Positions 5,507 to 63,923 of a DNA stretch of 64,000 bases are shown here, piece by piece. Under the pieces are notes generated by a model, which searched no databases, had not been told where the DNA came from, and saw only the letters and a program-made list of their open reading frames with translations. Origin of the DNA: a virus; IMG/VR virus record IMGVR_UViG_3300033153_008400, positions 32,001-96,000 of that record; one strand, 5' to 3'. Each line of letters opens with the position of its first letter. Position 1 is the stretch's first letter. The position numbers and the translations under genes are program-made.

Positions 5507-5752
5507 ATGACAGGAATTGTAACACTATTGGCAGCAGGAATTGATTCAGGCCCATTTAATCTTTATTCAGATGTAGATGGGTTTGTAGTACCATTTGAGA
5601 GCTTAATAGATAAGGCACTGCTATTAGCTGGCTACCCAGTCAACACGATCCCTGGGGGAACGACTAGTATAAGAATTAAGTCCATAAGTGCTGTTTGTTC
5701 AAATTATGTAGATGTAGTAATGCCGACTACAACTACGACAACGACAATATAA
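5507..5752 (+). CDS. Stand-alone GPFDLYS module with Thr tail
   Basis: 81 aa; GPFNLYSDVDGFVVPFE...IRIKS...CSNY followed by PTTTTTTTI. Confidence 0.65.
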   Translation: MTGIVTLLAAGIDSGPFNLYSDVDGFVVPFESLIDKALLLAGYPVNTIPGGTTSIRIKSISAVCSNYVDVVMPTTTTTTTI

Positions 5753-43800: not shown

Positions 43801-46800
43801 TCAAAGAGATGTGGAATAGTCTCTTGAGATATATACGTGGAGTATATAGAGTATCAACAATAGATATTTTCAAAGAGACAGGTGAAATGATAGTAGAAGG
43901 TAACATTGGCACCGTAGATGACATTGTCTCCACAGGGGTATTTTCGCAAATGGCTACTGAAAACCAACCATTAAATGATTTATATAAAAGGCTCTTAGAA
44001 GAAGACAATCGATTAACATTATATGAGGAGAATGAGATACCAGGAAAGAAAAGACATTATACTTATGTTGATCCTATTACTGGAGAAACTGTAGATGTAG
44101 ATTTTAGTGTTACTGAGGATATCAAACTTCAAAAAGAAAAAACAGGAAAAACATTTGCTCCTAGATCTCCACAGAATAAAATGATTGATGCGTTCAAGAT
44201 GAAATGGGGTAATTCAGGTCATAAATATTTAGAGGCTTGGTTAAAGATCAATTTAATAGATAAGGAAACAGGCTTTGCTAAGTCTATTCCTGGTACTGAT
44301 CCAGTAGATAATTTTGGTTTAGAAGATGAAGTAACCCAAGAATTAGAAAATTTTATTAAACAATTAGTAGATTCTTATCCTAAAGGAACTAAGTTCTTAG
44401 CAGAACCTATGGTAATTAATAAACAAAATCGTAATAGAACATTAGCATCTGCTATTGATTTTGTAGCATTAATTCCTGTTGAAAGGAACAATAAACCTGA
44501 TGTTAAGATAGAAATGCTGGATTGGAAGTTTACTACAATACTTGAGTCGGACAAAGTTCCTGATATACCTTGGTACAGTCAAAGTACTTGGAAATCTCAA
44601 ATGGGTGAGTATACTAAGATGTTGAGAGGTTATGGTATGAAAAATTATCAATTACAAAAGGCTAGGATGATTCCTTTTATAATGACATATGGTGAAGATA
44701 TTCCTGGTAGCCCATGGAGAGGACTATATGCTTCTCAAGTAGAGATAGGTGATGTAAATAGTTTGAAAGAAACTAATATTTACTTATTGCCTGTTCCTGT
44801 TAATATAGAGCCAACAGGTATAGCTGTTGTAGATAAATTACTATTTGAATTAAATGCATATTATCAAAGAAATTATGCATATGATGGTAAGTTAAATGCT
44901 GATGAGCAAAAGGAAAAAGAAAAAAAATTAAATAATTTAAAAGTAGCTATTAGGAGATTGCATGTAGCTAGAGATTTTAAACCACTTGTAGGTGTAGCAC
45001 AAAATTTTGTGAAAGCTGCTCAAACAGTTTTTGATAAGTTTGATGTAATGGATTATGCAACTGAAGATCCTAAAGTAATTTCAACTTTATTACATGAATT
45101 ATCTACATTGAAAAGAGACTCTTTTAGATTTGAAGGAATAAACAGAATATTTTTAGAAACTTATAAAGATAAAGAATTTGATAAAGAAGAAAATAAAATC
45201 CTACAAGATTTAGGAGATGTTTCTGTAGAAATAGAGAAAATGCTAGTCAAAATTGTTGAACATCAGAATGAACGTGCTAAATATATCAATTTAAATTTAT
45301 CATATACTACTGAAGAAGAAGGAGATAGTATTTTAACTCCATCAAGAGAGTTAAAAAGAATGGCAAAATTATTTAAGGAAGGTAGTAAACTTTCTAATAA
45401 ACGTGCAAATGCTATAGCTGCTATAGTGCTTCAGGGAAAAAATGAAGTAGAGTTGAGATTTAATAAAGAGATGTTTAAGTTTAACAGAATCTTTAAAAAA
45501 TTATATGCTCAGGCAAATAGCAGAGGAGTGTCTTCGTTCAGTTTGATAGGTAAGATTGGTAAAGCAGGTGATACAAAAGAAGGTGCTGAAGATACTTTAC
45601 AAATATATGATAAAGTTAAACCTAACTTTATGAAAGATCTTCAACGGGCTAGAACAGATAGGGATAAAACTTTTATTACGACACACATTGATATGAAAGC
45701 GCATAATAAATATATCAATGCTGAAATGAAGAAACAAGAAGCAGAATTGAATGCTCATGTATTCAATCCAAATGATGAAGCAGATAATGATATATCTAAA
45801 ACTGTGGCAATAGATAAAATGAGAAATTCATTAGATATCTACAGGACTACTTTTAATGGATGGAATTCTCATCATTTTTTAGAGTCAATGTTTGCTAATG
45901 TAAAAGAAAATGATCCTGAATATCAAACTCAGGAATATAAGGATATGGCTAAGAACCAAGTTGCTTTAGATGCTTGGAATTATGTCAGAGAATGGGGTGA
46001 CAGAGCTAAAGTTAATGGACATATTCCTCAATGGAAAGATGCATTTTTCCCATTAATTGAGGCTGATTCTATGGCAAAGTTTATGCAGAGTAAGAAAGGA
46101 ACCATAGCCAATATTAAGGAATATTTCTTAGATGCTATAACAGGTAGAATAGATGAAAGTAAAGGATATACTAATATTGATCCTGAAACAGGAGAAGCTA
46201 GAGAAAGTATTCCAGTATATTTTACAAGATCTAACAAAGATGTAGAATATATGACCCAGGATATTAGTAAAGCTGTTCCTATGTGGGTTCATTCTATCTT
46301 GGATTTTGAAGCTAGTTTAGCAATGGAAGCTGATCTTAATCTAATGGTAGATGTAGAAGAAAATATAGGTGTGTTTATTGTAGATGCCAGAAGAAAAATT
46401 CAGAGAGTAGCTGGAGAACCACAAGTTACTAAGAGTAAGAATGCAAATATTGCTGTATTAAGAGGACAGGTAAGTGATGCTATTTATGGTCAAAGAGAAG
46501 ATGTAGATGAATTAGGTAATGTAGAAATTACTGCTTTAGCTGCAAGACTTACTAAAATATTTGGTGGATCGGAAGAACAGATGGATCAAATAGCTACTGA
46601 GATCAGAATTAAAAAGATTTTAGAAGGAGCTAATAATTGGGTAAGGAATTTAGGTGTAGGTTTAAAACCTGCTATTGCTATAGCAAATGCAGCAGGACAA
46701 ACAATGTTATCCTATATATACAAAAGTGGTGTTTACAGAGGTAGAGAATATGCAAAGAATACTACTAAGGTAATGTCCAATAATCTTTCTACTAAGGAAA

Positions 46801-48035
46801 GAGGGCTCTTGCATTTTATATCTGCTTTCTCTGAAAATAATCTTATATTACAAAGACGTTTAGCTAAGAATGGTTTTATGTCATATCTGAATACATGGTC
46901 TATGACAGATATCATACAATCTACTAACTCATATCCTGAAATAATACTTCAGAGAATAAATGGTTTGAGTATGATGGAGAATACGATTGTTGTTGATGGT
47001 AAATTATTAAATGTTCGAGAGGTAGTATTAGCAGAAGACAGAGCAACAAAAGAAAAAGGTATTTCACAAGCGGCCCGTCGTGCATTAAATGATTCTTATG
47101 AAGATAGAGTAGCTGCACGTAAAGTTAGTGAAACACAATTAATAGAAGTAGTAGAAGTAAGTGAAAAGGGTGTAGAATTTCCTGGAGTATCTATAGAAGA
47201 ACTCGCTAAATTAAGAGTGAGAATAATGGAATATTCAAGAAAGTTGAATGGACAGATGGATGAAAATGATAAAGCTGCTTATAGAAGAAGTATTATCATG
47301 AATAGTTTTATGATGTTCAAACATTGGGTTCCTAAGTTACTTGAAGGCAGATTTCATGGGATTCATAAAAATTTACAATCTGATAATTGGGAATATGGTA
47401 GATCAAGATTGATGGCTAAAACGTTGCTTAAATTAGCAAGTACCAGTATTTTAAAAATGTCTGATTTAATACATCAAACAGATGAAGGGAAGAAGATAAT
47501 GGATCAAATGCTGGAAGAAAAAATGATTGCTCATTTTGATAAAACTGGACAAGTTTTACAGATTACGAGAGAAGAATGGTATGATTTAATGAGGCAAGAG
47601 TTATCTCGACAAATGAGAGAACTTCAGATGGTATTAATGGTATTTACAATATTGATGAGTATAAAGGCTGCAGAGCCACCAGAAAATATTAGTGCTGGAG
47701 ATAGAAGTAGATTTAATTATTTATTAAGAGTACTTAATAAAGTAACAGATGAGATATTATTCTTCTATAATCCAACATCATTTGAAGGTATGACTACTGG
47801 TAGTATAATGCCTGCAGTAACACTATTATCAAAGGCAGGGAAAATATTGAATGCAATTAGAAAAGCAACAGTTGCTGAAACTGAAAAAGAAAGGGAGAAT
47901 GCGAATGTTGCTAAACATATTTTGAATATAGTACCAATAGGATATCAAGTATCAAAAACATTCATACCATTAATAGATGCTGAATTGGCTAAAGATATGG
48001 GTAATAGAATTTCACCAGAAACAAATAGAAGATAA
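28818..48035 (+). CDS. Giant virion RNA polymerase polyprotein (crAss-type double-psi-barrel RNAP) with zincin-like, DUF4326-like and PD-(D/E)xK domains
   Basis: 6405 aa; catalytic GSDYDIDK at 39720-39743 preceded by FRTPTQ; ETDGAG at ~38205; HEVFH zincin at 35370-35384 with downstream EEIAEEF; IDFV...MLDWK...QMGEY nuclease at ~44050-44690. Confidence 0.9.
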   Translation: MSNGKPNTITGSKSRRGENFINRKATVPNLPSTPTLPIVEPYNTGAPGVMTARDIWNQRLATGSYNKIAPLNTKEIYSGPRYNETIPGTDYEEMHAQQQSNWGKWSNATAKMIGTASTTFVTGTAGLLYGMGSALINLKLSNVVDNSVTRAMDDISRGMDDSLPNYYTQKETEAKWWSPDNIMTANFWSDKVLKNLGFSVGSMAGGMAWGALFRSIGMTNQLVRWGKGNDLATAVEKRLAVAPASARYPAFQSALNKTWTTAKMPMAAVAKNSDRILTSIMATAGEATIEGLQAMHTLRESLLDEFKLSHGRMPSGLELNAINETVQTAGLYIYGMNGLILTATNYIQLGKIIGSSRKADKALINSIRRNADTRLWEAALPKTIAGKVLGVAKHIGRLSFAPVEALEEGLQHAATTGVEDYFSRAYKNKNETNDLLRAVDDNMLNVYSNVYLHGLHETLNTKEGLESMLIGALSGGLQQMGLFGSYRDEKGKIKYGVGKSGEIGEYGLFGRGGTRGINTKRAVEELNLKQVEDVIKDGVNYMGVGIGSQKLRQQAIENDDILAEKDAEEDYALSYLMPRIKYGKLESVIEELTNYKTQAMSTTGYSELVTAGLANQNETADEFIQRIDNLLESANKTDKMYSLLNDRYENARSEDGTIAYTPEVIDKMVYAAAKIENYDKRIEEVQTALLSSGVDLTLIDEIIKNKDAIPTDAQWEEVSKTADNVKITEQETFSTNLLDYGELLLRRKKFAQEYETIKDAPYNYRAVVGALPPEESEEIKSTKENSITVPVTTGGEKTYNIDDTYYLGNVLADQIVSGADLSAPQMKILSMNEDGTIKIMTQNGKELDITAGELEQLKLGSVNKALKDNKKGEFYFDNWNTPFTFNFGDNGGFKKGRIIYNENDDKMHFVYVDASGNTRDIEVTNDQFGPKGENEAQIQREEGVNDFQGGVEARFLAAKDERKDKKHEDRLKVLGEFAEEMMVRQAELTKVINKRQENVARTKKILGLLQEDLLKNKDKRTKDAYTIAGQKILTNIKRTEKDLEALEKVERESSEELNDITATLVYVEDLIENIDTRATDYVNFIAEIKVDKVNLEELHKEVTTGIKDLKTLIQEVKDFIQTSKDVLNDLLLQLSGAFPNISSEGVFLDDIVTVEDYFTDLAPLIGGTESEESLAFAGVTLTGIQPKKAQLTKMEKELSNAKKALDKYDDGIIARGKVLAKFGERLIEWERAKEEEAILGTSSEISSDILDSQSKSSFENDHYKEGFEYKKLKAKNLVVTGGIAPEGSDGKPVGVYAKRAQAFGNIFHRLVQNGKEFRGRVVTIANEKHIMKGLTKHLAQPGTDPRFTIVLVVTNKKGVPVDEKGIPITDESKLLDEGIYQTFPDPKLRNSYGSLFRADVKFKERERITKIYEKWVEKTLGQSKLQPLQDISASFGLVDYIQKTDSKGKILPEATSMARSSINASGLITNIELGSGDVIKVATNNDTLTRGTVEISAPLGHVFLEAPGGYVKLYNQKNSEKQSELIYNVLLQVTKNILRDKHGKEADTQRLFEWLRSVVYWGQPMNFQTGERKEPSDGSVYYEVIGQGEGVASERKLRIGKTSRFDFTPTSLKDNKDAIIALLQNVWGNTHAPGVAKDMYDVAYHEITAVNKDGTTEGITWNSYQQFLLADIYPDGSPRNLDSIPLKTKVRPLVGKEDTNRHAIYFYLEDSSEYMQDAPVESIVKKTVPGKKEVSTPKYIFDGVVENIINLGTLGEAKVTLNLDEAVQEFHRREGKVFSSLEETQQFTFALLSKHIITIGLGTDVEANLVEAGGATDSSAQSNAQMLVVEMLSSQITEAANRTAAKSEPVPTLKSSITSVEDLIQDINDAFIYINSGKYKGDRKNEMTSVGDKLVKIFLTGLRKEGLVKAGTRRAPRADGSYDTMTINEDLKGKNIGNDWSAAKHFKEKLRTFFDTEIAELKSSTKITETTVRTEDKKWKLDGSPEVMTVGESKVTFTLKDQAVIDALRDDSEILEDEIKRLKLITGLIRGGHLVITPTQAALDNGEKLLGSTDALITMLANTILQEVAPQIKKNWFLADTDKGSENYSDAEWEEIQARFNPEGETSSRTEEDDYTRIIAERHLEPFKETNWEKEAEWMKKNFPLIPINVLKNVIQATNGRQAWGLYRQGAVYIYKHAEAGTIYHEVFHAVWDMSLSLREKRQIAEEFRNRKGSYTDRFTFKVIKYSEATDYQMGEEIAEEFRDRVLYGKKPTRKPRSLMRRAFEGIINFFNDLLFGKDAFTNTNKLFDKMGNGDYAAFIPHEDVLRKAGESQILHIEGITVRKGDQLRPLITRLEGINAVQEHEIYQHMTFVAVNKMFATDDGLFAMKDRLKITNLYQDLKRNLLGENGIINRKQIDYSQITIKNPKQQEQVTKKIKDLDDLKIAINENWDVIKKRHMDSLAPYEITFDEEENLIVEDETIVKADSMDGNKIDSYRKSSGAIKLLFATLADFEKVPGENRTRLKTSSIGGATFEQSDKIYITLKNNLHDSTGLNDMLERLKELANNEETGYHYAKLYTRITKQDISDTNKNTVNIDKMSNSAIMLLGGFWKVIKGQNPDVPIIFILQGGEVVIGNTELSNASKQIRYEMSQNIIAHIREDAEGNEKLYKINSLGLYNPTTALKNVKLNSSKPAEYIRFLQAFGINFKLKEFNKFLPDQKATFREATEGLLSDLSTRKDIYSWSEKAINSTQNLLKLGALRAVMDNPVFESTYFSIAGERTQKFIGPNATSDLFHTLSQITNKQDLRSTRYSHLLDDVFTQGSVVMQKLFNGNERKRNTKDIFKTVYVGGTINEENNRRTRSSRLYYRDRLIQEMSLNLEGIYANLVPGDSELEWAIKMHSKKSPFITPSSVSRKEYQKIFRDYFIDEVNLSRDNRIVAKGRSARDLRFFKDILDAYNSKAHATILDYSHKISAEEIYEEHKSGIKAAVEAFITNDAEETMTLLKDYKIIQKIPGEAEIYKHTLSLKDKELSFTEMELQIKSLTVNYMIANIEQHKILYSDPYQYSDELKRIKNFNSPRQALMHSSKDLYKAINKVYNKGYKAEDLGYSNMDRSSFRTVTLQDIWSIIDPKLAKQYPGYTDYKNKEGWQETDGAGMITMKAYRFFRILAGDWLPNNEAQYRWDIQYQEKVMEINDATGTEKSRLNEKFRAFKAARKVHDQSTYTPIKPIVSGNKGNGRNYNDSVLDKYALFPMPFRVFHMMEPNSNILEFTEKMRREKIDYAIYETGRKVGVEETYPVYVKGALNTAPFQPQEEIDRVAENNPEDRVKRFVTNIPFSIMSLQTEVPSKKDGKVIQGSQITKLVTLDFMNGGVPIDFNPVDKDGNSIVTEDKDGKDTTDYDALSVAWVELETEAAKKEASLLYKEIQHNKRLLQERIQLGYENLLRKLGIIEDEDEDGNKTYTVFDKEKLIGTIEKEIFKQQKNNNLVVAFQEVREGKALIEATPVYQQIRNVLYSLANGNVVRPKISGGSKIQMPSTLFEVGARIEKFVHDGKTYLHSDVLNFYEEGKVAEIFVARWDNSPLSDEQLLNSWYKLDENDNRTSELTKEGERALKGIAFRTPTQKQNSIESYVIKKFLPRSYGDSVVIPSAIVRKTGSDYDIDKLSVYLKNLIWDGKRLFSVPFQGFQSELDAKREFKKIFHRLMENRISKVEGKKAKVISLKAMFTKIANGTAEFEEFEEFTPIISTLLENNNISLKDTEAINEYFDQRLGNGIARINTLTVKQFEEDAAQKFADKLYSQSIENEYIESLQRLVMHPKNYHNLIKPNSAQIMRDLTDHINEKFRRTKIDYHSAGFMLSRKKMSGLRQAFVGGKRAIGIAAVGATNNSNNQLADTYTDTNLIGTNIISDEDEFWLNGMKITKIADDTDADVKFLEYNKKMVDGRPMASLSRAKNSAGEYISDIIGMFIDGYVDISAGPWIMQMGATPETAGTWLYLLKIGVPKETVAYFMNQPIITELLFDLEIEGKSWLYNRNRIFDLLKLYAGSKANIAMIPSERGLDTMMGKKRGELSLLQKTQQQFILKEFLKYSKQADHLFLVTQGTNFDTATLNDPFLIFKKSRLFKMAQKTVISSAQKILDTSFLGYLKDTMDKIRGAYSVILLSDKNDPNKAITPRKVLERVLLPYIRMSDREFVGLSQKVVADFFDWAMQTDRSIKSSFNSLIVEILLGTDTERSAAKQIIQFKEDIFGREADANKGILAIAPKENHPLYNNMILKSFVLVPGARKNVPDNLIIKAKDNKVYDQNQTINSFEEIKDYLSSLKGSNSKYAGLYEKMVRLAVIQSGLSTSPISFSKLLPYEDFKEIYNHTLLNLEANPTIENYASLNVFERSNWNKGKWISTITRKVDYDEHDTRIVRTEDNVDYRLSSAEDKFEIPKVVFISEGNPNASEVIVYKWSIPITQDERIKRSKTGNTSHLKSQLMRKVYYDRGVEPIPLIQVHDEFNPYTGRNISYRGFVYVAINAWGDSFRGREFYNSVDGTNVKATVLDNGFEKVIEDQDIVGNKISSGEVTDEKVIEILSRKMLVAGNRVTSEDTKITPSSIYETLGDKTASRNVVIENVFQATGVKFAKSIGGIFSMRLKGSDKHFGNPFSSTIKDKSLIATKSTRESVERYIDWIIRGTDTRAKWIRTQLETGDLKRRPIVYYKELGEPSHATALDYLINQKDWTEPKLTREESTELEELKAKRETLETNPEYIVLNSIPKITPASAKKETGGKVGINQDINPSWLSKAGVTIEKAAENIYADNFSESNEYSEQDIRNYIIGALLKSKVEAKREIFDEKRLDELLNPGNKEDILSQTDDMNVSVATSNTIERMKAAAASMGINLTSLLNYAKDNPDVDVTNVNGIADLTQGIIAIAEGKEDVAITEELIHIGSAIVEANDPKRITALISKIADFKIYKTVLDAYKGKKAYQLPNGKPDIRKIKKEAIDKLMAEVVVNGANGSTDFPELSDLTVVGRIKEMWNSLLRYIRGVYRVSTIDIFKETGEMIVEGNIGTVDDIVSTGVFSQMATENQPLNDLYKRLLEEDNRLTLYEENEIPGKKRHYTYVDPITGETVDVDFSVTEDIKLQKEKTGKTFAPRSPQNKMIDAFKMKWGNSGHKYLEAWLKINLIDKETGFAKSIPGTDPVDNFGLEDEVTQELENFIKQLVDSYPKGTKFLAEPMVINKQNRNRTLASAIDFVALIPVERNNKPDVKIEMLDWKFTTILESDKVPDIPWYSQSTWKSQMGEYTKMLRGYGMKNYQLQKARMIPFIMTYGEDIPGSPWRGLYASQVEIGDVNSLKETNIYLLPVPVNIEPTGIAVVDKLLFELNAYYQRNYAYDGKLNADEQKEKEKKLNNLKVAIRRLHVARDFKPLVGVAQNFVKAAQTVFDKFDVMDYATEDPKVISTLLHELSTLKRDSFRFEGINRIFLETYKDKEFDKEENKILQDLGDVSVEIEKMLVKIVEHQNERAKYINLNLSYTTEEEGDSILTPSRELKRMAKLFKEGSKLSNKRANAIAAIVLQGKNEVELRFNKEMFKFNRIFKKLYAQANSRGVSSFSLIGKIGKAGDTKEGAEDTLQIYDKVKPNFMKDLQRARTDRDKTFITTHIDMKAHNKYINAEMKKQEAELNAHVFNPNDEADNDISKTVAIDKMRNSLDIYRTTFNGWNSHHFLESMFANVKENDPEYQTQEYKDMAKNQVALDAWNYVREWGDRAKVNGHIPQWKDAFFPLIEADSMAKFMQSKKGTIANIKEYFLDAITGRIDESKGYTNIDPETGEARESIPVYFTRSNKDVEYMTQDISKAVPMWVHSILDFEASLAMEADLNLMVDVEENIGVFIVDARRKIQRVAGEPQVTKSKNANIAVLRGQVSDAIYGQREDVDELGNVEITALAARLTKIFGGSEEQMDQIATEIRIKKILEGANNWVRNLGVGLKPAIAIANAAGQTMLSYIYKSGVYRGREYAKNTTKVMSNNLSTKERGLLHFISAFSENNLILQRRLAKNGFMSYLNTWSMTDIIQSTNSYPEIILQRINGLSMMENTIVVDGKLLNVREVVLAEDRATKEKGISQAARRALNDSYEDRVAARKVSETQLIEVVEVSEKGVEFPGVSIEELAKLRVRIMEYSRKLNGQMDENDKAAYRRSIIMNSFMMFKHWVPKLLEGRFHGIHKNLQSDNWEYGRSRLMAKTLLKLASTSILKMSDLIHQTDEGKKIMDQMLEEKMIAHFDKTGQVLQITREEWYDLMRQELSRQMRELQMVLMVFTILMSIKAAEPPENISAGDRSRFNYLLRVLNKVTDEILFFYNPTSFEGMTTGSIMPAVTLLSKAGKILNAIRKATVAETEKERENANVAKHILNIVPIGYQVSKTFIPLIDAELAKDMGNRISPETNRR

Positions 48036-52088: not shown

Positions 52089-55000
52089 ATGGCATATCCA
52101 GTATATCAAAGTAATGGTGGAATAGGAACAGGAACAGCTTATGAAGTAGTTGTTGATTATCCTTCTACTGTAAATGCAGATGATATACTTATTGCTTGTA
52201 TCATGGATGCTGATAATGATACGTTTGATACACCTTTCGGATGGACTAAAATATATGAAGATGGTACAGTTAATAACTGTTCAGTAGCTTTTTATTGGAA
52301 ACGAGCTGACGGAACAGAAACAGGTTCAGTTACTTTTACGTCTTTACTTAATGCAGGTTCTTTAGTAGCGGGTATTATGTATCGTTATTCAGGTTGCATT
52401 AAAACTGGTGTTCCATTTGAAGAAAAAGCACAGTATGCTGTTACACAAGCTACATCACAAGTTATTGGTTGGGGAGCTATGTTTCCTGCTAATGGTACAG
52501 ATAGACTTGCAGTAGCTTTTAATATTGTTGAGGATAATACCATATCTGGGTTTTCAGGTACAGGATGGACAGAAGATAGCAGATTATCTACATCAGTAGG
52601 TGGTGATGCTCATTTTGCAGCCGCTTCTGAAGAATTTACTACTTATGGTAGTGTTGCTACATGGACTTCAGGAAATGAATATAATGGAGGTTTAGGATTA
52701 TATCTACTTCCTGAACCTGAAATAGATGTTACTTTAAATACAGCAGATGCATATGATTTTGAAGAAGATACTACTCCTACATTAGAATTTACAGGTGATG
52801 CAGTAAGTAATGAAGATTTAGAATATGAAATACAAATTGATACTGTTAATACTTTTAATTCAGATGAACGAAATGATGATGGTTATTCTGAAAGTAATTA
52901 CGATACTGATGCTCCTATTGGCGATTTTACAACAAATAAAGGAATAGCTCAAAGTTTTACAGCTCAATCAAGTTCTATCCTTAAATCATTAGATGTTTAT
53001 CTTAAAAAGATAAGTGCTCCAACAGGAAATGCAGTAGCTAAACTTTATTATCATGGAGGTAATTATGGTAGTATTACACTCTCAGCTCCAATAGGAGATG
53101 TATTAGCTATTTCTGATACCTTTGATGTCTCAACATTAACAACATCTTATGAAACTGTTACTTTTAATTTTCCTACTTTTTTTGAATTAGAAGAAGGAAC
53201 TTATTATTTTATTTCTATTGAATATACTGGTGATAGTTCTAATTATTTAGAAGCTAAAATAGATACATCTTCTCCAACTCATAGTGGAGTTATAGCTGCA
53301 TTAAATAGTTCTAATGAATGGTATGGAACAGGTTTTGATTATGATTTATGTTTTCAATTAAAAGTAAGTATTCCTTTAATCCAAGCATTATCAGAAGTAC
53401 CAGATGCAGGGTTTTTGAATACAACAGATAATTGGGAAGCTACTACATATTACTTCGATGGTTCAGATGCAGCAGCAGTAGATAGTGGTACAGATTGGGT
53501 TGATGTTACTAATTCTGATGATGGTTCTATTTCTACTTATGCTTATATACCATCAGGAACTTCTATTCTAAAAATAGAGGGAACTAATGCACCTGCAAGT
53601 GGTAATACCATTACTCTTGTAAGAACAAGAATATATTATGATGATGATGATAATGATACTCCTCATTGGAGTTCTTATTATAATTTATCAATCCCTTCAG
53701 GTGGTTGGACATGGGCTAAAGTTCAAGCATTAGAATCTTCTTATCTTGTAGGAGGAGGGATATGTACTTTTACTGTTGATACAAATGGAGATGCCGAAGA
53801 ACTTTTATTTGAAACTTTCAGTTCTTATGATTTTAGAGTTTACAAAGTAGAAATAGAAGTAATCACAGGAGATTGGCATCCATTTGATGACAATGAAAAG
53901 GTAAGTTATACGGTACAACCAATTGTTCCAAGTATTATAGAAACATTTTATTTTGATGGTAGTGATTTACCAGCAGAAGACCAAGGTAGTGATTGGGTTA
54001 ATGTTACTAATCTTGATGATGGTAGTATATCTACTTACATGTACACTACTTCTTTACTTTCATCAGCTATATGGTGTGATGGTACAAATGCACCATCTTC
54101 AGGAAGTGCCATTGTAAAAGTACGAACAAGAATTTATGTAGAAAATGGACAAGGTAATCCTCTTTTATGGGATATTTGGGACGAAACTTCAACTGAATTA
54201 TTAACTTATGAAGATTACCCTATTGATTTTTCTTTAGGATGGACAGATTATGTGAATGTATTGGCTCCTATAGGTGGATGGACATGGGCTGGTGTACAAG
54301 GACTTTCATTAGCTATATCCTCAGGATCAGGAAGTGCAGGGCAAGTTGATGTCTATAAAATGGAAATAGAAGTTACTTCATTAGGTCCTTTACCTGCACC
54401 AACAGGAACAGATGTTTACTATTGGAGAGCAAGGGCTAAAAACCCAACAGGAATTAATATTTGGGATGATTGGAGTTTCTTAGCTACTCCTATAACTACA
54501 TATTATTTCGATGGGAGTGATGCAGGTGCAGTAGATACGGATGCTGTTTGGACAGACGAAACGAACACAGACGATGGTTCTACATCTACCTATGGTTATA
54601 CCACAACATTAGGTTCAGAAACTACAAATGAAGTTATAATAGAAGGAACAAATGCTCCTGCAAGTGGAGCAGATATTTTTTCTGTTAGAGCAAGATATTA
54701 TGCTAATTTTTCAGGGGGTGATGGTTGGTCTGATTATGTAGAATTATCTATTCCTTCGGGCGGTTGGACATGGGCTAAACTACAAGCTCTTGAAGCTATT
54801 ACTTATTATACACAACAAATTGGAGAATATGGAGCTTTATCTATATACACAAATGGATTAGGAGAAAGATTACTTCAAGTAATAGCTCATAACGAAATTG
54901 CCACAACTCAATATAATCTTTATAAAATAGAACTTGAAGTAACCCCTTACAAAACTTTTGAACTTACAGAAGCAACAGGTACTACTACGACTACCACAAC

Positions 55001-55145
55001 AGTAGGAGGAGGAATTAATATAAAAGTAAACATAGGAGATGATTGGAAAGAAGCAACAGCTATGAAAATAAACATAGGGGATGATTGGAAGGAAGTGATA
55101 ACTGTAAAACAAAATATAGGAGGAATTTGGAAAACAGTTTTTTAA
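52089..55145 (+). CDS. Receptor-binding / fibre tip protein with three internal repeats
   Basis: 1018 aa, acidic and beta-rich; three copies of YYFDGSD...W.D.TN.DDGS.STY...GTNAP.SG...GGWTWA; short Thr tract; C-terminal (NIG..WK)x3. Confidence 0.65.
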   Translation: MAYPVYQSNGGIGTGTAYEVVVDYPSTVNADDILIACIMDADNDTFDTPFGWTKIYEDGTVNNCSVAFYWKRADGTETGSVTFTSLLNAGSLVAGIMYRYSGCIKTGVPFEEKAQYAVTQATSQVIGWGAMFPANGTDRLAVAFNIVEDNTISGFSGTGWTEDSRLSTSVGGDAHFAAASEEFTTYGSVATWTSGNEYNGGLGLYLLPEPEIDVTLNTADAYDFEEDTTPTLEFTGDAVSNEDLEYEIQIDTVNTFNSDERNDDGYSESNYDTDAPIGDFTTNKGIAQSFTAQSSSILKSLDVYLKKISAPTGNAVAKLYYHGGNYGSITLSAPIGDVLAISDTFDVSTLTTSYETVTFNFPTFFELEEGTYYFISIEYTGDSSNYLEAKIDTSSPTHSGVIAALNSSNEWYGTGFDYDLCFQLKVSIPLIQALSEVPDAGFLNTTDNWEATTYYFDGSDAAAVDSGTDWVDVTNSDDGSISTYAYIPSGTSILKIEGTNAPASGNTITLVRTRIYYDDDDNDTPHWSSYYNLSIPSGGWTWAKVQALESSYLVGGGICTFTVDTNGDAEELLFETFSSYDFRVYKVEIEVITGDWHPFDDNEKVSYTVQPIVPSIIETFYFDGSDLPAEDQGSDWVNVTNLDDGSISTYMYTTSLLSSAIWCDGTNAPSSGSAIVKVRTRIYVENGQGNPLLWDIWDETSTELLTYEDYPIDFSLGWTDYVNVLAPIGGWTWAGVQGLSLAISSGSGSAGQVDVYKMEIEVTSLGPLPAPTGTDVYYWRARAKNPTGINIWDDWSFLATPITTYYFDGSDAGAVDTDAVWTDETNTDDGSTSTYGYTTTLGSETTNEVIIEGTNAPASGADIFSVRARYYANFSGGDGWSDYVELSIPSGGWTWAKLQALEAITYYTQQIGEYGALSIYTNGLGERLLQVIAHNEIATTQYNLYKIELEVTPYKTFELTEATGTTTTTTTVGGGINIKVNIGDDWKEATAMKINIGDDWKEVITVKQNIGGIWKTVF

Positions 55146-56163: not shown

Positions 56164-56549
56164 TGATAGAAAATTTAAAAAAATACAAATGGGTATACAC
56201 TGTTTTAGTTATTATAATTGGAGGTGCTACATGGATCTATACTCAAGGTGGAATTGATTACGATAAAGAAAGTAGATTATTTACTACTCCTGAAAAAAGA
56301 ATTGAAACTGAAACTTATTTTGAACAACGACCTTCTCCAGTACAAGAAATGCGACAACTTATTTTAGATAGTGTTGCAGCTAGAGAAGTGATTAAAAATT
56401 CTAAAGATGCTACACGTTCAAGAGCTAAACGAGATTCTTTATATAAAGAAGAACGTAAAGCTAGGCAGATAACTGATTCTATAAATAAGTTAAATGCAGA
56501 TCAGATGTATCAGATCAAGGAAGAACTCAAAAGAATTAAACAAGAATGA
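56163..56549 (+). CDS. Membrane-anchored coiled-coil protein (lysis accessory)
   Basis: N-terminal TM segment (WVYTVLVIIIGGATWIY) followed by a charged helical region. Confidence 0.5.
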   Translation: MIENLKKYKWVYTVLVIIIGGATWIYTQGGIDYDKESRLFTTPEKRIETETYFEQRPSPVQEMRQLILDSVAAREVIKNSKDATRSRAKRDSLYKEERKARQITDSINKLNADQMYQIKEELKRIKQE

Positions 56550-57109
56550 AAAATCTACTAATTATATTCATATCAGTATTTCTTATAGGATGTTTAGGTT
56601 CTAAAACAGTCAGTGAATCTACCATTAAAACAAAAGAAGTTGATAAATCTGAAAAGGTAAAAGATTCTATTTCTACCAAAGATACCAATAAAGCAATTGA
56701 TGATAAGATTGTTACACCAGTACCAAAAACTGGTAATGCTGAGATGGATGCAAGATTTGATGCATTATTATCAGCTATGAATACATCTAAAACTTCAGGA
56801 GATAACTCTTATAAGCGTTATTATGACGAAAATACACGACAACTCATAGAAGAATTTAAAATAGGTGAGACCACTTCTGAGAAGATTGATGTTAATGAGA
56901 GTGAAAAAGTTGAAAAAACCTTTGAAGAGCAACAAAATGAATACTTTAAAAAGAAAATAACAACAATGCCCTGGTACCTATGGGTTGCATTATTTGTATT
57001 CTTATGGCCTACTATATGGAAGTTCTTGAAGCCAATTATACAAGTAGCTACAGGACCAGCTAATATAGTAACAGGAGTGACTAATCTTATAAAACCAAAA
57101 GATAAATAA
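56546..57109 (+). CDS. Putative unimolecular spanin (lipoprotein with C-terminal TM helix)
   Basis: Signal peptide with lipobox LIGC, S/T/K/E-rich periplasmic region, C-terminal TM (PWYLWVALFVFLW). Confidence 0.7.
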   Translation: MKNLLIIFISVFLIGCLGSKTVSESTIKTKEVDKSEKVKDSISTKDTNKAIDDKIVTPVPKTGNAEMDARFDALLSAMNTSKTSGDNSYKRYYDENTRQLIEEFKIGETTSEKIDVNESEKVEKTFEEQQNEYFKKKITTMPWYLWVALFVFLWPTIWKFLKPIIQVATGPANIVTGVTNLIKPKDK

Positions 57110-57119
57110 AATATTTTGT

Positions 57120-57127
57120 TACCTTTG
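57120..57127 (+). promoter_or_regulatory. Bacteroidota-type -7 promoter box TACCTTTG
   Basis: Exact TAnnTTTG match in the intergenic gap, about 28 nt upstream of the ATG at 57155. Confidence 0.55.
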
Positions 57128-57154
57128 GTAACACACACAATAAATTAACTACAT

Positions 57155-58201
57155 ATGAAGAACGTAAAGTTTATTACTGCATGTCCTGATGATAACTATT
57201 ATACATGGCAAGTCCATTTATGGTTAGAATCTTTGAAAGACTTAGATAAATCCAAAGATGCAATCGTTTTAATCTACAGACCATTGGTTAGGGAACCAAA
57301 TACAAAATGGAAGAAAATTGAAGAGCTTTATCCTGAAGCAGAGTTCAATTATATTGTAGAACGTGTAGGAGAGAACATGAATACGTTGATCGGCATCTAT
57401 ATTCCAATTATAAGAACGTATAGTATGTGGCGTTACTTGAAAGAGAATCCCTCCCTGGGGTTAGATAATGTATTGTTCTTTTGTGATTCAGATATTTTGT
57501 TCACGAAAGATTTCAATATAGATAAATTTTTAGAAGAGGATGATGATGTCAATTATGTATCAGATTCTGTAAGCTATATGGGAGCAGTATACTTTGACAA
57601 CAAGATCAGTGAAGTACTTCCTGAGAAGAAAGAAGAATTCAAGACTCGGGATGTTTTAGCAGAGTTGTTAAGTATCATAGGAGTTGAAAGAGAAGTTGCA
57701 GATAGAAATCAAGAACATAGTGGAGGAGTACAATATATTTTAAAGAATTCTACTCCTGATTTTTGGCAAAAGGTAATGAATGATGCTATTTTGATTAGGA
57801 CGTATATGCAAAAGGTAAACAGAGAGTTTTTTCCTACTCAAGATTTAGGATATCAAAGTTGGTGTGCTGATATGTGGTCAATTTTATGGAATTTATGGTT
57901 TGGTAACCTTGAAGTAAAAGTTGTTCCTGAATTAGATTTTAGTTGGGCATCTTGTAAGATAGACCAATTAGATAAGAAAACGATTTTTCATAATGCAGGA
58001 ATTACAGGAGAGAGTATGCCACACGATGGAGGTGGAACTCATTTATGTTTTTATAAAGGAAAGTACCACAGAGGTTCTGACCCAACTAAAGATCCTGTAT
58101 TAGATCAAATTATAAATAGTGAAGATTCTCAAAAATTTTGTACTTGGTTTTATGCCAAGAAGGTAAAAGAAATTGGAGAAAAATATAAAATAGATTATTA
58201 A
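57155..58201 (+). CDS. GT-A fold glycosyltransferase resembling peptidyl O-glycosyltransferases (GT95 HPAT / GT96 SGT-like)
   Basis: N-terminal FITAC..NYYTWQV, DxD motif FFCDSDILF (57485-57493), GGVQYIL, WCADMW (57860) and a late IFH; the order and spacing resemble the YxxWQ / DxD / WxxEM motifs of HPAT/SGT enzymes. Confidence 0.65.
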   Translation: MKNVKFITACPDDNYYTWQVHLWLESLKDLDKSKDAIVLIYRPLVREPNTKWKKIEELYPEAEFNYIVERVGENMNTLIGIYIPIIRTYSMWRYLKENPSLGLDNVLFFCDSDILFTKDFNIDKFLEEDDDVNYVSDSVSYMGAVYFDNKISEVLPEKKEEFKTRDVLAELLSIIGVEREVADRNQEHSGGVQYILKNSTPDFWQKVMNDAILIRTYMQKVNREFFPTQDLGYQSWCADMWSILWNLWFGNLEVKVVPELDFSWASCKIDQLDKKTIFHNAGITGESMPHDGGGTHLCFYKGKYHRGSDPTKDPVLDQIINSEDSQKFCTWFYAKKVKEIGEKYKIDY

Positions 58202-58218: not shown

Positions 58219-58500
58219 ATGAAAAAAAGAGACCTCAAAGGGTATGTCAGATTCGATGGATCAGGCCGAATTGTAGCAGGAAGTTTAGTACTAAGAAGAA
58301 AAATGCCTAAAGTGGGCAAGTGGCAAGAAGTCCCTTCTTATGAATGTTGTAATACGACGACTACTACTACAGCAGCGCCTACTACGACAACGACTACTAC
58401 GGCAGCTCCGACAACAACAACAACGACCACGGCAGCGCCTACGACTACTACGACAACAACCGTAGCACCGACAACAACAACAACAACAACAGGAGCATAA
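58219..58500 (+). CDS. Mini-mucin: basic ~44-aa head plus five Thr runs
   Basis: MKKRDLKGYVRFDGSGRIVAGSLVLRRKMPKVGKWQEVPSYECC then (T7AAP/VAP)n ending TTTTTTTGA; tightly packed between its neighbours. Confidence 0.75.
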   Translation: MKKRDLKGYVRFDGSGRIVAGSLVLRRKMPKVGKWQEVPSYECCNTTTTTTAAPTTTTTTTAAPTTTTTTTAAPTTTTTTTVAPTTTTTTTGA

Positions 58501-59849: not shown

Positions 59850-60338
59850 TTATTTGATAACGATAAAGTTCTTTCCTGCACCTTTAAAGTATGTTATTCC
59901 TTTATTTAGTTTCTCAGATATACCCCGAGCTAATTCTATTTCAGGTCCTCTGTTTGTATCATCTACTATGATAGGTACAGATGTATCGAACAGGTGTATA
60001 TTATATAAGAATCCTTCACGACCTATGTTCCCAGGAGGACCATCTACCAGAATCATGTCATATTTTACACCTTTGAGTGCAGCTCTTATTGCTATTAACG
60101 AATACCATTTATAATTACGATAAGTTTGTATTGGAGCATATATGTAATTAGAGTCTTCTACATGATTTAACCATCCTTTGTTATGTTCTATTGAATATAC
60201 TTTCCACTTTTTGATTAATTCAGTTGTTCCTGTACCACTACCTAATTCCAATATGGTTTTACCTTCTTCTAAGTTATCAACAATCCATTTGTATAGTTCA
60301 GTGGATATTGCCCACCCATTTAAATTTTTTTCATTCAT
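59850..60338 (-). CDS. Class I SAM-dependent methyltransferase
   Basis: ILELGSGTGT motif I, SIEH, YDMILVDGP, IIVDD. Confidence 0.8.
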   Translation of the reverse strand: MNEKNLNGWAISTELYKWIVDNLEEGKTILELGSGTGTTELIKKWKVYSIEHNKGWLNHVEDSNYIYAPIQTYRNYKWYSLIAIRAALKGVKYDMILVDGPPGNIGREGFLYNIHLFDTSVPIIVDDTNRGPEIELARGISEKLNKGITYFKGAGKNFIVIK

Positions 60339-60344
60339 AATTGT

Positions 60345-60968
60345 TTATATGTGTTGGTTAAGGACTTTGAATTTTTCAATCCAACCAAATCCTTTTTTGT
60401 TATAATGTAAGTCACTGTGAAATGCATTTAAGCAAAATTCAGAAAAGTAAGTGTGTTTTATTTGTGATTTGAATGCTAATAATCGTGTTTTCTTTTCAAC
60501 ATAAAAATCATTAATTTCTACGGCTAAGTTAGGAACCCACATTGTATCAGCAGATGGAGTAAAGTATTCATATAAATTATACTTAGATACCCTAGAGAGC
60601 GAACGACCTAAATTACTAACTTTAACATGGAAGAAATGATTATCTTCTCTACAGGGGATAAATATTGCATCATACTGTTGTAAATTATATTCTTTTTCTA
60701 ATTTATAGACAGCTATGTCTTGTTTAAATTTATTAGGTTCTAGTCCTTCGATATAGATTATGTTTACATTTTCAACATCTTTCCAAAAAGCTATCACTTC
60801 TTCATACCTAGTCTTATTCTTAGTCAAATCTAAGTCACCTCCAAAGCTGAATACATAGATATCAAATACAGTAGATTTAAATTTTAAAATAGTTCCACTC
60901 ATTGAGTATTCTATATCGTCTGGATGTGGACTCAGACACATAACACGATCATTATTTAAGAATTTCAT
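60345..60968 (-). CDS. PIG-L/LmbE-family N-deacetylase
   Basis: LSPHPDDIE metal motif, DNHFFH, K...L.AFKSQ, IEKF. Confidence 0.85.
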   Translation of the reverse strand: MKFLNNDRVMCLSPHPDDIEYSMSGTILKFKSTVFDIYVFSFGGDLDLTKNKTRYEEVIAFWKDVENVNIIYIEGLEPNKFKQDIAVYKLEKEYNLQQYDAIFIPCREDNHFFHVKVSNLGRSLSRVSKYNLYEYFTPSADTMWVPNLAVEINDFYVEKKTRLLAFKSQIKHTYFSEFCLNAFHSDLHYNKKGFGWIEKFKVLNQHI

Positions 60969-61825
60969 ATACTTGGCATTGATTTGAATAATTTTCCAGT
61001 ATAAAATTTAATACCATTCCTACGTAAGAAATCACGTAAATCTTCTGTTATTGGGTTTTGTTCACCATATATCTTCATATCATTTAAATCATAAATGATT
61101 ATTGATTCAGGTAATCCTAATTCTATTCTATTTTTAAGTGGATTATATCCTAAAAATTTTACACCTTTAATTCCTTTTGCAGGGCATAAAACATCATACC
61201 ATCTTTTTAAAATAGGAAGTAATAATTCTGCTCTTTCTTTAGGAAGCAATACTTTTTTAGGATACATGTTTTTCCTAATGACTTTACAAGGTACTCCTGC
61301 AGCCAATGATCCAGAGGGTATATCTTTAGTAATTATGCTACCAATACCTATTACAGTATTATTACCAATGGTAGTATTAGGTAAGACAATACATCTGGCT
61401 GGTAACCATACATTATCTTCTATAGTAACAGGACCAAAATCAGCAGGAAATCCTTGTAGGATATCCAACCATGCTCCGTGTGTCCAGATCATGACACCGT
61501 CGCCTATACCAACATCATTCCCTATTTTAACAGGGCTATTTGGGTTTATTACGGTATTCTCAAAAATACCAACATGGTCTCCTATTTCAACAGTAGCCTC
61601 TGGATTCTTATGACCACCTCTACCAACTTCAACGTTCTTTCCCATATATAAGTAATCACCTGCTGTAAATGTTTGACAATTTATTGTACAACCATCTTTG
61701 ATAACACAACAATCTCCTAGTCTGAATGTACCTTTGACATTAATCTTAACATTATTTCCTATTACGCAGTTTTTACCATAAAGGATTTTATCTGCATTTA
61801 TCATTGCGTTTTTATGTATGCTCAT
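60965..61825 (-). CDS. Hexapeptide-repeat (LbH) sugar acetyltransferase
   Basis: IGDHVGI, IGNDVGIG...IWTH, PVTIEDNVWL...IGNNTVIG.GS.ITKDIP...AAGVPCKVIR. Confidence 0.9.
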   Translation of the reverse strand: MSIHKNAMINADKILYGKNCVIGNNVKINVKGTFRLGDCCVIKDGCTINCQTFTAGDYLYMGKNVEVGRGGHKNPEATVEIGDHVGIFENTVINPNSPVKIGNDVGIGDGVMIWTHGAWLDILQGFPADFGPVTIEDNVWLPARCIVLPNTTIGNNTVIGIGSIITKDIPSGSLAAGVPCKVIRKNMYPKKVLLPKERAELLLPILKRWYDVLCPAKGIKGVKFLGYNPLKNRIELGLPESIIIYDLNDMKIYGEQNPITEDLRDFLRRNGIKFYTGKLFKSMPSI

Positions 61826-62624
61826 TTGATTGATTTTTATTATAAGTTATTATTTCTTCTTGTATATCATCTACATATTGACAAGTATTGAACCAATGAC
61901 TACCCGTTCTTTTTCTTAGATTAATATATTTTTTACTTAGATGTTCAGTAAGTGAATTTTCTATATCATTCAGTGGTATTACCTTAGTTAAGAATTTAGT
62001 ACAATATGCTTCAGTCATAGCAGTACATTTGATATTGTAGCCATTAACTAATTTAGGAATAGCATTGAATCCCTCTTCAATTAATAATTTAAGTTGCTCC
62101 TGGGAGATGATCAAAGATGACTGATGTAGATTCTTGGGTTCCATAAAGTCTTCCCCATTTATTGTTACTATCTTGCCTAGACCTCTGTAAGATGCGTGGA
62201 AGGCTGGTAGTAATTTCCTGCCTTTGTCTTCCTCATAGGTGAGGTTTCCAATAATGTAACCATCTAGTTTATTTTCGCCATAGCTATATTTGACAAACTG
62301 TTTAAAATTCTTTTCATTGAAAGCTATATCGTCTTCTAAATGTATGAATATATCATAGTCATTGACTTTAGATAGCATATCTGCTCTATATAACCATATA
62401 AATTCGGGTTCTGGTTGCCAGCCATTGGCCCACACGGAATTACTGAAGACCTTGGGCTTGATTATGACGCTGACGACGAGTTCAGTGTCCAAATTGAGTG
62501 CTTCTGTAGTATAAATGATGACATCTAAGTCTAAATCAAAGGATTTTAAGTTATTTAATATTTTATTTACATGTCTAACTTTCTTATTGCCTTCATAATT
62601 TGTTATATATACTAATCCTTTCAT
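61812..62624 (-). CDS. Putative GT-A glycosyltransferase
   Basis: YDIFIHLEDDI acidic motif and late EHLS..Y; lies in a glycan-modification operon. Confidence 0.6.
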   Translation of the reverse strand: MKGLVYITNYEGNKKVRHVNKILNNLKSFDLDLDVIIYTTEALNLDTELVVSVIIKPKVFSNSVWANGWQPEPEFIWLYRADMLSKVNDYDIFIHLEDDIAFNEKNFKQFVKYSYGENKLDGYIIGNLTYEEDKGRKLLPAFHASYRGLGKIVTINGEDFMEPKNLHQSSLIISQEQLKLLIEEGFNAIPKLVNGYNIKCTAMTEAYCTKFLTKVIPLNDIENSLTEHLSKKYINLRKRTGSHWFNTCQYVDDIQEEIITYNKNQSNEHT

Positions 62625-63163
62625 TTTTTTACTAATATGGTTAGACCATTATTATTTGTGAATCTTTCTTTAATACTCCATTCAGGATTATCTTCCATAA
62701 ATTCTTCAATAGCTGGCCATAGTCCTAATCTGGAAAGTCCATCATATGATTCACCTATATAAGCATATGTAGTAGTATCATGAAAAATAAGATATTTACT
62801 TACTTTTGGAGCATGTAGTTTAAGTTCTACAGATAGTTGATCATAATTATGAAGAGTATCAATAAACAATAATTCAGTAGGGTCTATCTCTATTTCTAAG
62901 GTATTACCTATTATAAATTGAAAATTTGTATAATTTTCTTCTAAAGCTTGTTTTTGAAGAGGTTTCCAATCACAATTTCTTATATCATATGATATTAATG
63001 TATAAGGATGTCCAGCCAGTAAAGCATATGTAGAAACAATTCCTCTAACTCCCATTTCTGTTACATGTCTACATTTTTTAGCATATCTTTTCAGAATAGG
63101 TAAGTGTTCGTTTATGTCTGAGGGTTTATCCCACAGTTCTTGATATTTATTTTCTATGTTCAT
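62621..63163 (-). CDS. Class I SAM-dependent methyltransferase (Methyltransf_24-like)
   Basis: SDINEHL, VTEMGVRGIVST, LLFIDTLH.Y, YLIFHDT, NNNGLTIL. Confidence 0.8.
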   Translation of the reverse strand: MNIENKYQELWDKPSDINEHLPILKRYAKKCRHVTEMGVRGIVSTYALLAGHPYTLISYDIRNCDWKPLQKQALEENYTNFQFIIGNTLEIEIDPTELLFIDTLHNYDQLSVELKLHAPKVSKYLIFHDTTTYAYIGESYDGLSRLGLWPAIEEFMEDNPEWSIKERFTNNNGLTILVKK

Positions 63164-63923
63164 TACAATAATCTTTAAGTTGTTGTTGATAATCTATATC
63201 CCAGTGAGGATTTAGTACAATGTTACCTGTAGGAATGTTTCCTTTAACACGTTCACTTTCTATGTGCTCAGAATTCCTTACTACAATATTAGGTCTTGTA
63301 TCGTTGTCTTTGCCTAAGCCTGATTGATGATAGGACCTATTTGCCCAGTAATAGAACCAACTTACTTCATCATCTGGAGGGAATGCTCGAACAACTTTTT
63401 CATCACCCAGAGCTCTGATGGATACAACCAATACCATGTCTCCACCTGCATTCATGAGTGGACTCTTTCCGATGGCTTCCCATGCCCCTTTGGAGTACAC
63501 TATACCTGAATTACCTATAGTCATTATCTTAGATATTTTCTTATTGTTATAAGCTACTCCTCGGTTCCAATGTAATAAGTTAGTGTCCTTCTTCCAATAC
63601 TTAACTACATTCTGTAAGTGGTTAGGCATAGCTATGTCATCATCATCCCACACAGCTATTAGCGGCCCTTTACAGAGTTCTATAGCATAGTTCTCTTTCT
63701 CACCTATCAGTGGAAAGGTATCATCAAGGTTATATATCTTTACTTGAGGATGACTAAATTTTAATTTTTGTAGTGGATAGTCATTTACAATGATGAGTTC
63801 ACACTTATCAGCAGGATAGTCCTGGATAAGAAAACTATGGAGAGCCTCTTCTAATGTAGGGACTCTGCCGTGCGTGATGCACTTGCATGAAATCATAGGA
63901 TATTCTTTATCTTTATCATACAT
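63147..63923 (-). CDS. GT2-family glycosyltransferase
   Basis: ISCKCITHGR...LEEAL.SFLIQDY...ELIIVND...IGEKENYA...IAVWDDDD. Confidence 0.85.
   Translation of the reverse strand: MYDKDKEYPMISCKCITHGRVPTLEEALHSFLIQDYPADKCELIIVNDYPLQKLKFSHPQVKIYNLDDTFPLIGEKENYAIELCKGPLIAVWDDDDIAMPNHLQNVVKYWKKDTNLLHWNRGVAYNNKKISKIMTIGNSGIVYSKGAWEAIGKSPLMNAGGDMVLVVSIRALGDEKVVRAFPPDDEVSWFYYWANRSYHQSGLGKDNDTRPNIVVRNSEHIESERVKGNIPTGNIVLNPHWDIDYQQQLKDYCNEHRK

Follow-up and report, generated by a model that had tools for sequence, protein, structure and literature searches.

A 64,000-nucleotide stretch of viral DNA (hereafter the window), comprising bases 32001-96000 of the 122,743-base IMG/VR record IMGVR_UViG_3300033153_008400, carries on its + strand (positions 57155-58201) a gene whose 348-amino acid (aa) product is predicted to be a soluble glycosyltransferase (GT) with a GT-A fold. 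This open reading frame (ORF) has the coordinates given in a preliminary description of the locus, it is present as a single copy in the viral genome, and its product is a member of PHROG 4417, a family that has not been named. At a distance of 17 nucleotides (nt) past its stop codon begins another + strand gene (58219-58500), which encodes a 93-aa ‘mini-mucin’ composed of a conserved head of ~45 residues ending in ECCN and five subsequent T6-7-x-x-P runs, where Tn denotes n consecutive threonine (Thr) residues. The pairing of this enzyme with Thr-rich tracts, in the window and in relatives from cultured and uncultured phages, is the subject of this report.

The enzyme family and its predicted fold

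The enzyme gene is a real and conserved one, because its product is matched by 1188 proteins (among 2650 candidates) at E<=0.001 and by 692 cluster representatives at the same threshold in an exhaustive HMMER scan of 1.84 billion, with 521 of the representatives at E<=1e-10 and 100 at E<=1e-30. The best 120 matches listed are 53-88% identical to the query and carry neither a Pfam domain nor a name beyond ‘hypothetical protein’. The other names found among relatives are ‘Prophage pi2 protein 34’ and, for one fused form, ‘SAM-dependent methyltransferase’. PHROG 4417, whose function is recorded as not known, matches the protein at E 2.5e-48, with residues 5-340 aligned to positions 2-291 of the 293-position profile.

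Five ordered motifs had been noted in the preliminary description, and all are present in that order: YYTWQ (residues 15-19), CDSD (110-113), GGVQY (190-194), WCADMW (236-241) and IFH (277-279). An alignment of 57 diverse family members that are 29-88% identical to the query (alignment A1) contains ten invariant residues (57/57), namely Y82, D111, D113, Y141, Y146, Q234, F262, H279, K301 and Y333, and G190, G191, Q193, Y194 and D239 are nearly invariant. The motifs mark the conserved core of the family, because invariant or near-invariant residues fall within them.

That the protein is a phage glycosyltransferase, as had been proposed, is borne out by structure prediction. The AlphaFold2 model built on A1 (pLDDT 97.1, pTM 0.93) is a single domain with a Rossmann-like alpha/beta/alpha architecture, as in the solved GT-A enzymes that it matches. 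The DxD motif, D111-S112-D113 (codons at 57485-57493, + strand), directly follows the fourth beta strand (residues 105-110) and is predicted to form the metal and nucleotide-sugar site, and the fold suggests a catalytic role for it. H279 (codon at 57989-57991, + strand) closes the strand formed by residues 277-279, where it may supply a third ligand to the metal, as is the case in GT8 enzymes. This arrangement in the model is the usual GT-A layout. The DxD motif is also invariant in a second alignment (A2) of 38 members of a subfamily that includes the 295-aa relative P0258, as is H249, the counterpart of H279. When compared by hhalign, A1 and A2 align with a probability of 100% (E 3.4e-98), and the two sets of sequences clearly constitute one family. 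No membrane segment is found in the window’s protein, in keeping with the earlier claim that it lacks a transmembrane anchor: the highest mean Kyte-Doolittle hydropathy over 19 residues is 0.87, and the model forms one globular domain.

Foldseek matches of the model in the Protein Data Bank (PDB) include the catalytic domain of UGGT (GT24; 5y7f) at E 2.4e-6, as well as WbbM, glycogenin (GT8), Ktr4 and an alpha-1,3-galactosyltransferase, with TM scores of 0.3-0.58 across the list. A second structure search, independent of Foldseek, likewise identified retaining GT-A enzymes of GT8 and GT24 as the nearest solved folds, at sequence identities of 7-11%. In a library of viral structures, the top two matches are members of the family itself, an uncultured phage protein (E 4.5e-29) and Orf49 of Lactobacillus phage LP65, and GT8-like proteins of giant viruses rank after them. 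Judged by the model, therefore, the protein is a soluble GT-A glycosyltransferase whose nearest neighbours in fold are the retaining enzymes of GT8 and GT24, and retaining catalysis is predicted because its fold resembles that of GT8 enzymes. It differs from GT8 and GT24 enzymes in the model by an additional helical insert (residues ~139-185) and a C-terminal extension. Sequence searches with the protein found no Pfam family at E<=1 and no NCBIfam family, the Pfam GT8 family (Glyco_transf_8) matched neither it (E<=1) nor any of the 57 relatives, and searches of PDB sequences with the single protein or with a profile gave chance hits only. The protein cannot be filed in GT8 or GT24 by sequence because it is too distant from every member.

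A comparison with solved structures speaks only in part for the protein acceptor that the preliminary description had envisaged. Among the nearest folds, glycogenin, Skp1 Gat1, UGGT and GlyE act on proteins, and LgtC and WbbM act on lipo-oligosaccharide or O-antigen. Because the latter enzymes are among the closest, the fold leaves the acceptor unfixed.

The preliminary description had also recognized in the motifs a likeness to hydroxyproline O-arabinosyltransferase (HPAT, GT95) and to peptidyl-serine alpha-galactosyltransferase (GT96), and the GT95 assignment is not established. The Pfam HPAT family (PF23452) does not match the window’s protein at E<=1, and a six-frame search of the whole genome with PF23452 returned nothing at E<=10, although this search is a weak one in which 14 control genomes were also silent. 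Nevertheless, no Pfam family other than PF23452 recurs among the relatives, and it matches 3/57 members of A1 (best E 0.012). The closest approach is made by P0258 (E 1.3e-4, positions 9-230 of the 307-position profile), whose 21.9 bits fall below the curated cut-off of 23.9 bits that no relative reaches, and P0258 is also the one member in 38 of A2 to match. In the ESM Atlas, 20 of the 30 named near clusters are viral, with PF23452 present in 10-40% of the members of each. A search seeded with P0258 recovered no named plant protein among its 85 matches. Collectively, these similarities are a consistent lead that weakly suggests a remote kinship with GT95, and membership is not established.

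Some relatives are fused to additional domains. Ten long fused forms were scanned, of which two carry Methyltransf_24, one carries GT2 and methyltransferase domains, one carries a PF11397 ‘GlcNAc’ transferase domain, and six carry additional regions that match no Pfam domain. The fusions with added domains (metagenomic proteins P0156, P0175, P0208 and P0269) would fit the building of a glycan in multiple steps on one substrate.

Threonine tracts encoded beside the enzyme gene

A tblastn search for homologues in cultured phages yielded 77 records from phages of Lactobacillus (23), Enterococcus (21), Staphylococcus (11), Lactococcus (8), Clostridium (3) and Lacticaseibacillus (2), together with ‘Bacteriophage sp.’ (6) and one record each for Chryseobacterium, Levilactobacillus and Arcanobacterium; no Mycobacterium or Streptococcus phage is among them. 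Eleven of these records were sampled, being picked for diversity from the best 30 rather than at random. In every one (11/11), a Thr-rich tract is encoded directly upstream of the homologue, either in the neighbouring ORF or in an overlapping frame. Several of these neighbours are virion components. For example, the upstream gene of phiFL1A encodes the major tail protein, which has the C-terminus NGTTTTTSTTTTTTSSTTTTTTTQASSK, and those of phiCTP1 and phage 1706 encode the tail-tube proteins gp18 (C-terminus EETTTTTNAPITTTTTTV) and orf13 (C-terminus T10-HHD). The neighbours in CHPC836 and R3.3 are Thr-tailed capsid proteins, and PT94, Semele and iLp84 carry small Thr-repeat proteins in this position. 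Chryseobacterium phage MA9V-3 encodes a 428-aa protein with an internal Thr linker, and SAC12B a 185-aa protein that ends in seven TTVxP repeats. In Planchet, the capsid gene is overlapped at its end by a different frame, which encodes the tract.

Two features of these tails are worth recording separately. In Enterococcus phage Planchet (locus L003, positions 7772-8001), the overlapping frame continues past the capsid stop codon to read ...EPTTTTSTTKVTTTTTSTSTTTTTTVMPTTTTTTVAEG* directly before the GT homologue, an arrangement that resembles a programmed frameshift, by which some of the capsid subunits would acquire a poly-Thr extension. Furthermore, Thr tails share an ending within a given phage, with ...T(n)-(S/T)HA present on both the capsid and the tail tube of CHPC836 and of R3.3, and ...T(9-10)HHD on two proteins of phage 1706. 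Such a shared end motif could act as a terminal signal for recognition or stopping.

Close relatives that lack the enzyme provide a second line of evidence. In the Lactococcus phage CHPC836 (Sandinevirus), the enzyme gene lies between the capsid gene and a DNA-packaging gene, the capsid protein has the C-terminus ...GNFTGAPTTTTTTQATTTTTSHA, and the tail-tube protein has the C-terminus ...NGYASTTTTTTTHA. Six relatives with capsids 84-92% identical to that of CHPC836 (BK5-T, bIL286, 4268, CHPC148, proPhi2 and CHPC1175) have the packaging gene directly after the capsid gene. Their capsid proteins end in GNFTAGK or GNFKTTTSTAV, and their tail-tube proteins end in GVGV (NGYAGVGV in five, NGYARVGV in proPhi2). 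A search of the six whole records with the A1 profile found no homologue, and the positive controls were recovered in 4/4 cases at E 1e-54 to 1e-78. A codon pattern for six consecutive Thr residues occurs nowhere in the six relatives, versus three times in CHPC836, five times in phiFL1A and 11 times in phage 1706 (and zero times in SAC12B).

A similar picture emerges for a second group. Both phiFL1A and R3.3 carry the enzyme and have Thr tails on their capsid-like and tail-tube proteins. The enzyme was found in 0/4 of the phages Javan47, Javan505, Bassarid and phiJL-1, which have tail-tube proteins 50-60% identical, in a search in which the R3.3 control was positive. The capsid and tail proteins of these four phages end without Thr runs, and a five-Thr pattern is absent from three of the four genomes. 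Thus, in two sets of close relatives, the enzyme and the poly-Thr tails are present or absent together. The ten enzyme-free relatives were selected among the highest-ranking BLAST matches and do not constitute a random sample.

The same association is found in uncultured phages. Among the best 80 of 284 IMG/VR loci, in which the homologue is 53-61% identical to the window’s protein, 78 contain an ORF with a run of at least five Thr residues (T5+). Such an ORF starts within 600 nt after the GT stop codon in 56 of the 78 loci that have at least 400 nt of downstream sequence, versus a background of 126/1270 (9.9%) for other ORFs on the same strand. The head family of the mini-mucin was identified in 73/80 loci, and 92 of the 115 head ORFs carry T5+. 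For the P0258 subfamily, a Thr-rich ORF lies within 400 nt in 19/24 loci, versus 31 of 298 background ORFs.

The mini-mucin gene itself is often arranged in tandem, with two copies in 36 loci and three copies in 3. In some loci the head and Thr linker precede large extra C-terminal domains, as in a 663-aa form (locus L021). The sequences of these forms make the head look like a docking module that displays variable cargo.

Candidate substrates and other features of the window

The late strand of the window encodes 50 T6+ runs distributed across nine ORFs, and none of these runs falls in four giant ORFs that total 9656 aa. Within the runs, Thr is encoded by a mixture of codons (124 ACA, 121 ACT, 75 ACG and 23 ACC), and therefore selection has acted on the protein rather than on a DNA repeat. 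Several of the nine ORFs match PHROG virion structural or tail families. The mini-mucin is the likely substrate of the enzyme, and the remaining eight late proteins with T6-8-x-x-P runs are candidates.

All eight are encoded on the + strand. The first is a 393-aa protein (1146-2327) that has two C-terminal T6+ runs and no PHROG match. It is followed by a virion structural protein (PHROG 31752; 2409-2999) with a T8 run at residues 3-10, a 280-aa protein (3522-4364) with five T6+ runs in an internal linker and a C-terminal tail, and an 80-aa protein (5507-5749) with the C-terminus PTTTTTTTI. A 1350-aa protein (5762-9814) carries 22 T6+ runs, which form a mucin-like stalk at residues ~475-890, and a 105-aa protein (9831-10148) carries three T7-8 runs at its C-terminus. 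The last two candidates are a 1877-aa virion structural protein (PHROG 37948 and 15100; 12448-18081), which has 10 T6+ runs near its C-terminus, and a 1018-aa protein (52089-55145) that has a single T7 linker at residue 965. Positions 28818-48035 on the same strand are occupied by a single ORF of 6405 aa without Thr runs. Three ORFs of 945-1342 aa precede it, one of which has a lysozyme/LysM-like stretch.

On the minus strand, six packed genes (59850-63923) encode a methyltransferase-like protein, a PIG-L-like deacetylase, a hexapeptide acetyltransferase, two proteins without assignment and a GT2 glycosyltransferase (63147-63923). The latter is the other recognizable glycosyltransferase, and its orientation agrees with the earlier remark that the + strand enzyme gene lies apart from other such genes. 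This operon, by virtue of its proximity, possibly elongates and modifies the glycan.

The gene directly upstream of the enzyme gene (56546-57109) encodes a 187-aa protein with a lipoprotein-like start (…FLIGC) and a hydrophobic C-terminal segment. This protein lacks Thr runs and does not resemble the genes found upstream of the enzyme in other phages. In the 45-nt gap between the two genes, a TACCTTTG box is present on the + strand (57120-57127), 27 nt ahead of the ATG. The preliminary description had considered this box to be the gene’s own promoter. The box is certainly there, but the sequence is not more frequent than expected by chance, because its six occurrences in the window (2.75 expected) are attained in 6/100 shuffles. 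It is possibly a Bacteroidota-type -7 promoter element. It also sits within a perfect 6-3-6 palindrome, GTTACC-TTT-GGTAAC (57117-57131), which could be an operator or a hairpin instead of, or in addition to, a promoter.

Proposed function and relation to known systems

We estimate a probability of roughly 70% that the enzyme is a soluble, cytoplasmic and metal-dependent GT-A glycosyltransferase that attaches the first sugar to Thr residues in poly-Thr tracts of the phage’s own particle proteins, before or during assembly. Late in infection, the soluble enzyme would bind a nucleoside diphosphate sugar and a divalent metal through D111/D113 and H279, and would pass the sugar to the hydroxyl groups of Thr residues in T6-10 tracts that are exposed and disordered. 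Its targets would be capsid, tail and fibre proteins as well as small docking proteins, and in larger phages further enzymes might then extend and tailor the glycan. An initiating protein O-glycosyltransferase had been envisaged in the preliminary description. Apart from its GT95 component, this proposal is supported by the Thr-rich neighbours in all 11 sampled genomes, by the co-variation of enzyme and tails among close relatives, and by two small phages in which this is the sole recognizable glycosyltransferase. The choice of Thr as the acceptor and the assignment of an initiating rather than an extending role are the parts that we infer from these patterns.

The alternative that survives best is that a host enzyme or another phage enzyme adds the first sugar to Thr, and that the enzyme described here adds the next. 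Skp1 Gat1, GlyE and UGGT, which are among the top fold matches, are all extending enzymes, fused forms with a GT2 or a PF11397 domain exist, and the window encodes, besides the GT2 protein, an unassigned 269-aa protein in its sugar-tailoring operon. However, no product is annotated as a glycosyltransferase in CHPC836 (57 features) or phiFL1A (61 features), and glycosyltransferase Pfam families were found in 0/18 of the largest uncharacterized ORFs of these two phages at E<=0.001, yet their tails track this gene. If the phage supplies the modification, then the enzyme must start it, since no other glycosyltransferase was seen in these genomes. A host initiator, in turn, would need to be present in the cytoplasm of Lactococcus, Enterococcus, Clostridium and a Bacteroidota host alike. 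We therefore regard an extending role as improbable.

Still less probable is a role in modifying a glycan of the host envelope (teichoic acid, cell-wall polysaccharide, lipopolysaccharide or capsule) for receptor masking or serotype conversion, in which case the adjacency to Thr-rich genes would be incidental. Such roles are common for phage glycosyltransferases according to one source (PMC12619734), and LgtC and WbbM are among the best folds. This explanation is difficult to reconcile with the position of the gene, which in lytic and temperate phages alike immediately follows capsid or tail-tube genes within a late structural module, or with a protein that has no membrane segment. It also does not predict that the presence of the enzyme should track Thr tails in near-identical phages, or that Thr-rich ORFs should be adjacent in 56/78 loci against a background of 9.9%. 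The glycosylation of phage DNA bases as a defence against restriction is very improbable: although DNA glucosylation is a well-known role of phage glycosyltransferases (PMC12619734), the annotation tables of the 11 sampled loci list no hydroxymethylase or base-modification genes beside the enzyme gene, tail genes flank it in small temperate siphophages such as phiFL1A, and this role would not account for the link to Thr tails.

Several observations weigh against the assignment of an initiating, Thr-directed role to the enzyme. Every link between the enzyme and Thr is one of gene neighbourhood and co-occurrence, related phages share synteny by descent, and the genomes and relatives came from the top of BLAST lists. 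The association also has exceptions. Seven of the 80 close IMG/VR loci have no head-domain ORF in the stretch examined, and in the P0258 subfamily a Thr-rich ORF is not adjacent in 5/24 loci, two of which lack upstream sequence. The neighbour in SAC12B has TTVxP repeats and no T6 run, and Bassarid, which has no enzyme, has one place with ACT repeats (the T5 pattern) near its genome end. Likewise, the enzyme-free phages bIL286, 4268 and CHPC148 retain a short KTTTSTAV capsid end, which may be a vestige of a poly-Thr tag or the starting point of one. Tract thresholds varied between scripts, and the first automatic threshold missed SAC12B, phiCTP1 gp18 and Planchet, which were found by reading translations. 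Finally, some of the enzymes with the closest folds modify lipo-oligosaccharide or O-antigen, and many of the top matches elongate glycans instead of initiating them.

A broader proposal can be formulated in which a bare poly-Thr run is a portable glyco-tag that any protein can carry, such that one small cytoplasmic enzyme starts a mucin-type O-glycan on it. Phages of hosts from Bacteroidota to Firmicutes would then coat their capsids, tails and fibres simply by adding T6-10, and the family would be a viral sister of plant GT95. We consider this combination tentative and, taken as a whole, rather unlikely.

If the proposed function is confirmed, sugar-coated virions would be common among dairy, enterococcal, staphylococcal and large environmental phages rather than being a peculiarity of mycobacteriophages. 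Such coats would matter for how the immune system recognizes therapeutic phages, how phages adhere to mucus and surfaces, and how stable they are. A large family of ‘hypothetical’ proteins would acquire a name and a testable function, and the enzyme and its tag might be adapted as a one-enzyme, one-tag system for the cytoplasmic O-glycosylation of recombinant proteins. Cultured phages that can be paired by presence and absence of the enzyme, such as CHPC836 versus BK5-T or bIL286, are already available.

Several known systems share individual features with the proposed one. HPAT is a Golgi type II membrane protein that acts on hydroxyproline in plants. Both HPAT and, according to the proposal, the phage enzyme modify hydroxy-amino acids in repetitive proteins, but the phage enzyme has no membrane anchor and its proposed acceptor is Thr. 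The capsid-glycan glycosyltransferase A64R of Chlorella virus PBCV-1 (2p6w) is a weaker structural match than GT8 enzymes and belongs to a eukaryotic virus, whose glycans are attached in a different way. The serine-rich repeat adhesins of streptococci (GtfA/B, GlyE) also undergo cytoplasmic O-glycosylation, and GlyE (5gvv) is a structural match to the phage enzyme. However, that system employs a GT-B initiator, and its substrate is a Ser-rich, exported bacterial adhesin rather than a virion protein. Our literature search, which did not extend to subscription papers and supplements, found nothing on the PHROG 4417 family or on poly-Thr tags paired with a phage glycosyltransferase.

By analogy, the closest known system is the glycosylation of mycobacteriophage virions. 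As described in PMC12619734, which cites Freeman et al. (2023, Cell Host Microbe 31:1216), these virions carry glycans at the C-termini of capsid and tail-tube subunits, and phage glycosyltransferases are proposed to be involved; the same study is among the references of PMC12582341. The enzyme family described here appears to be distinct from the mycobacteriophage one, because none of the 77 homologue-bearing records is a Mycobacterium phage. The systems also differ in that the hosts here are Firmicutes and probably Bacteroidota, in that the tag is near-pure poly-Thr, and in that glycosylation is predicted. The genes here show a glycosyltransferase encoded in or beside the structural module, and Thr tails at the C-termini of capsid and tail-tube proteins. 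The latter, as seen in CHPC836, phiFL1A, R3.3 and phage 1706, occupy the same C-terminal position as the glycans that this source describes for mycobacteriophages.

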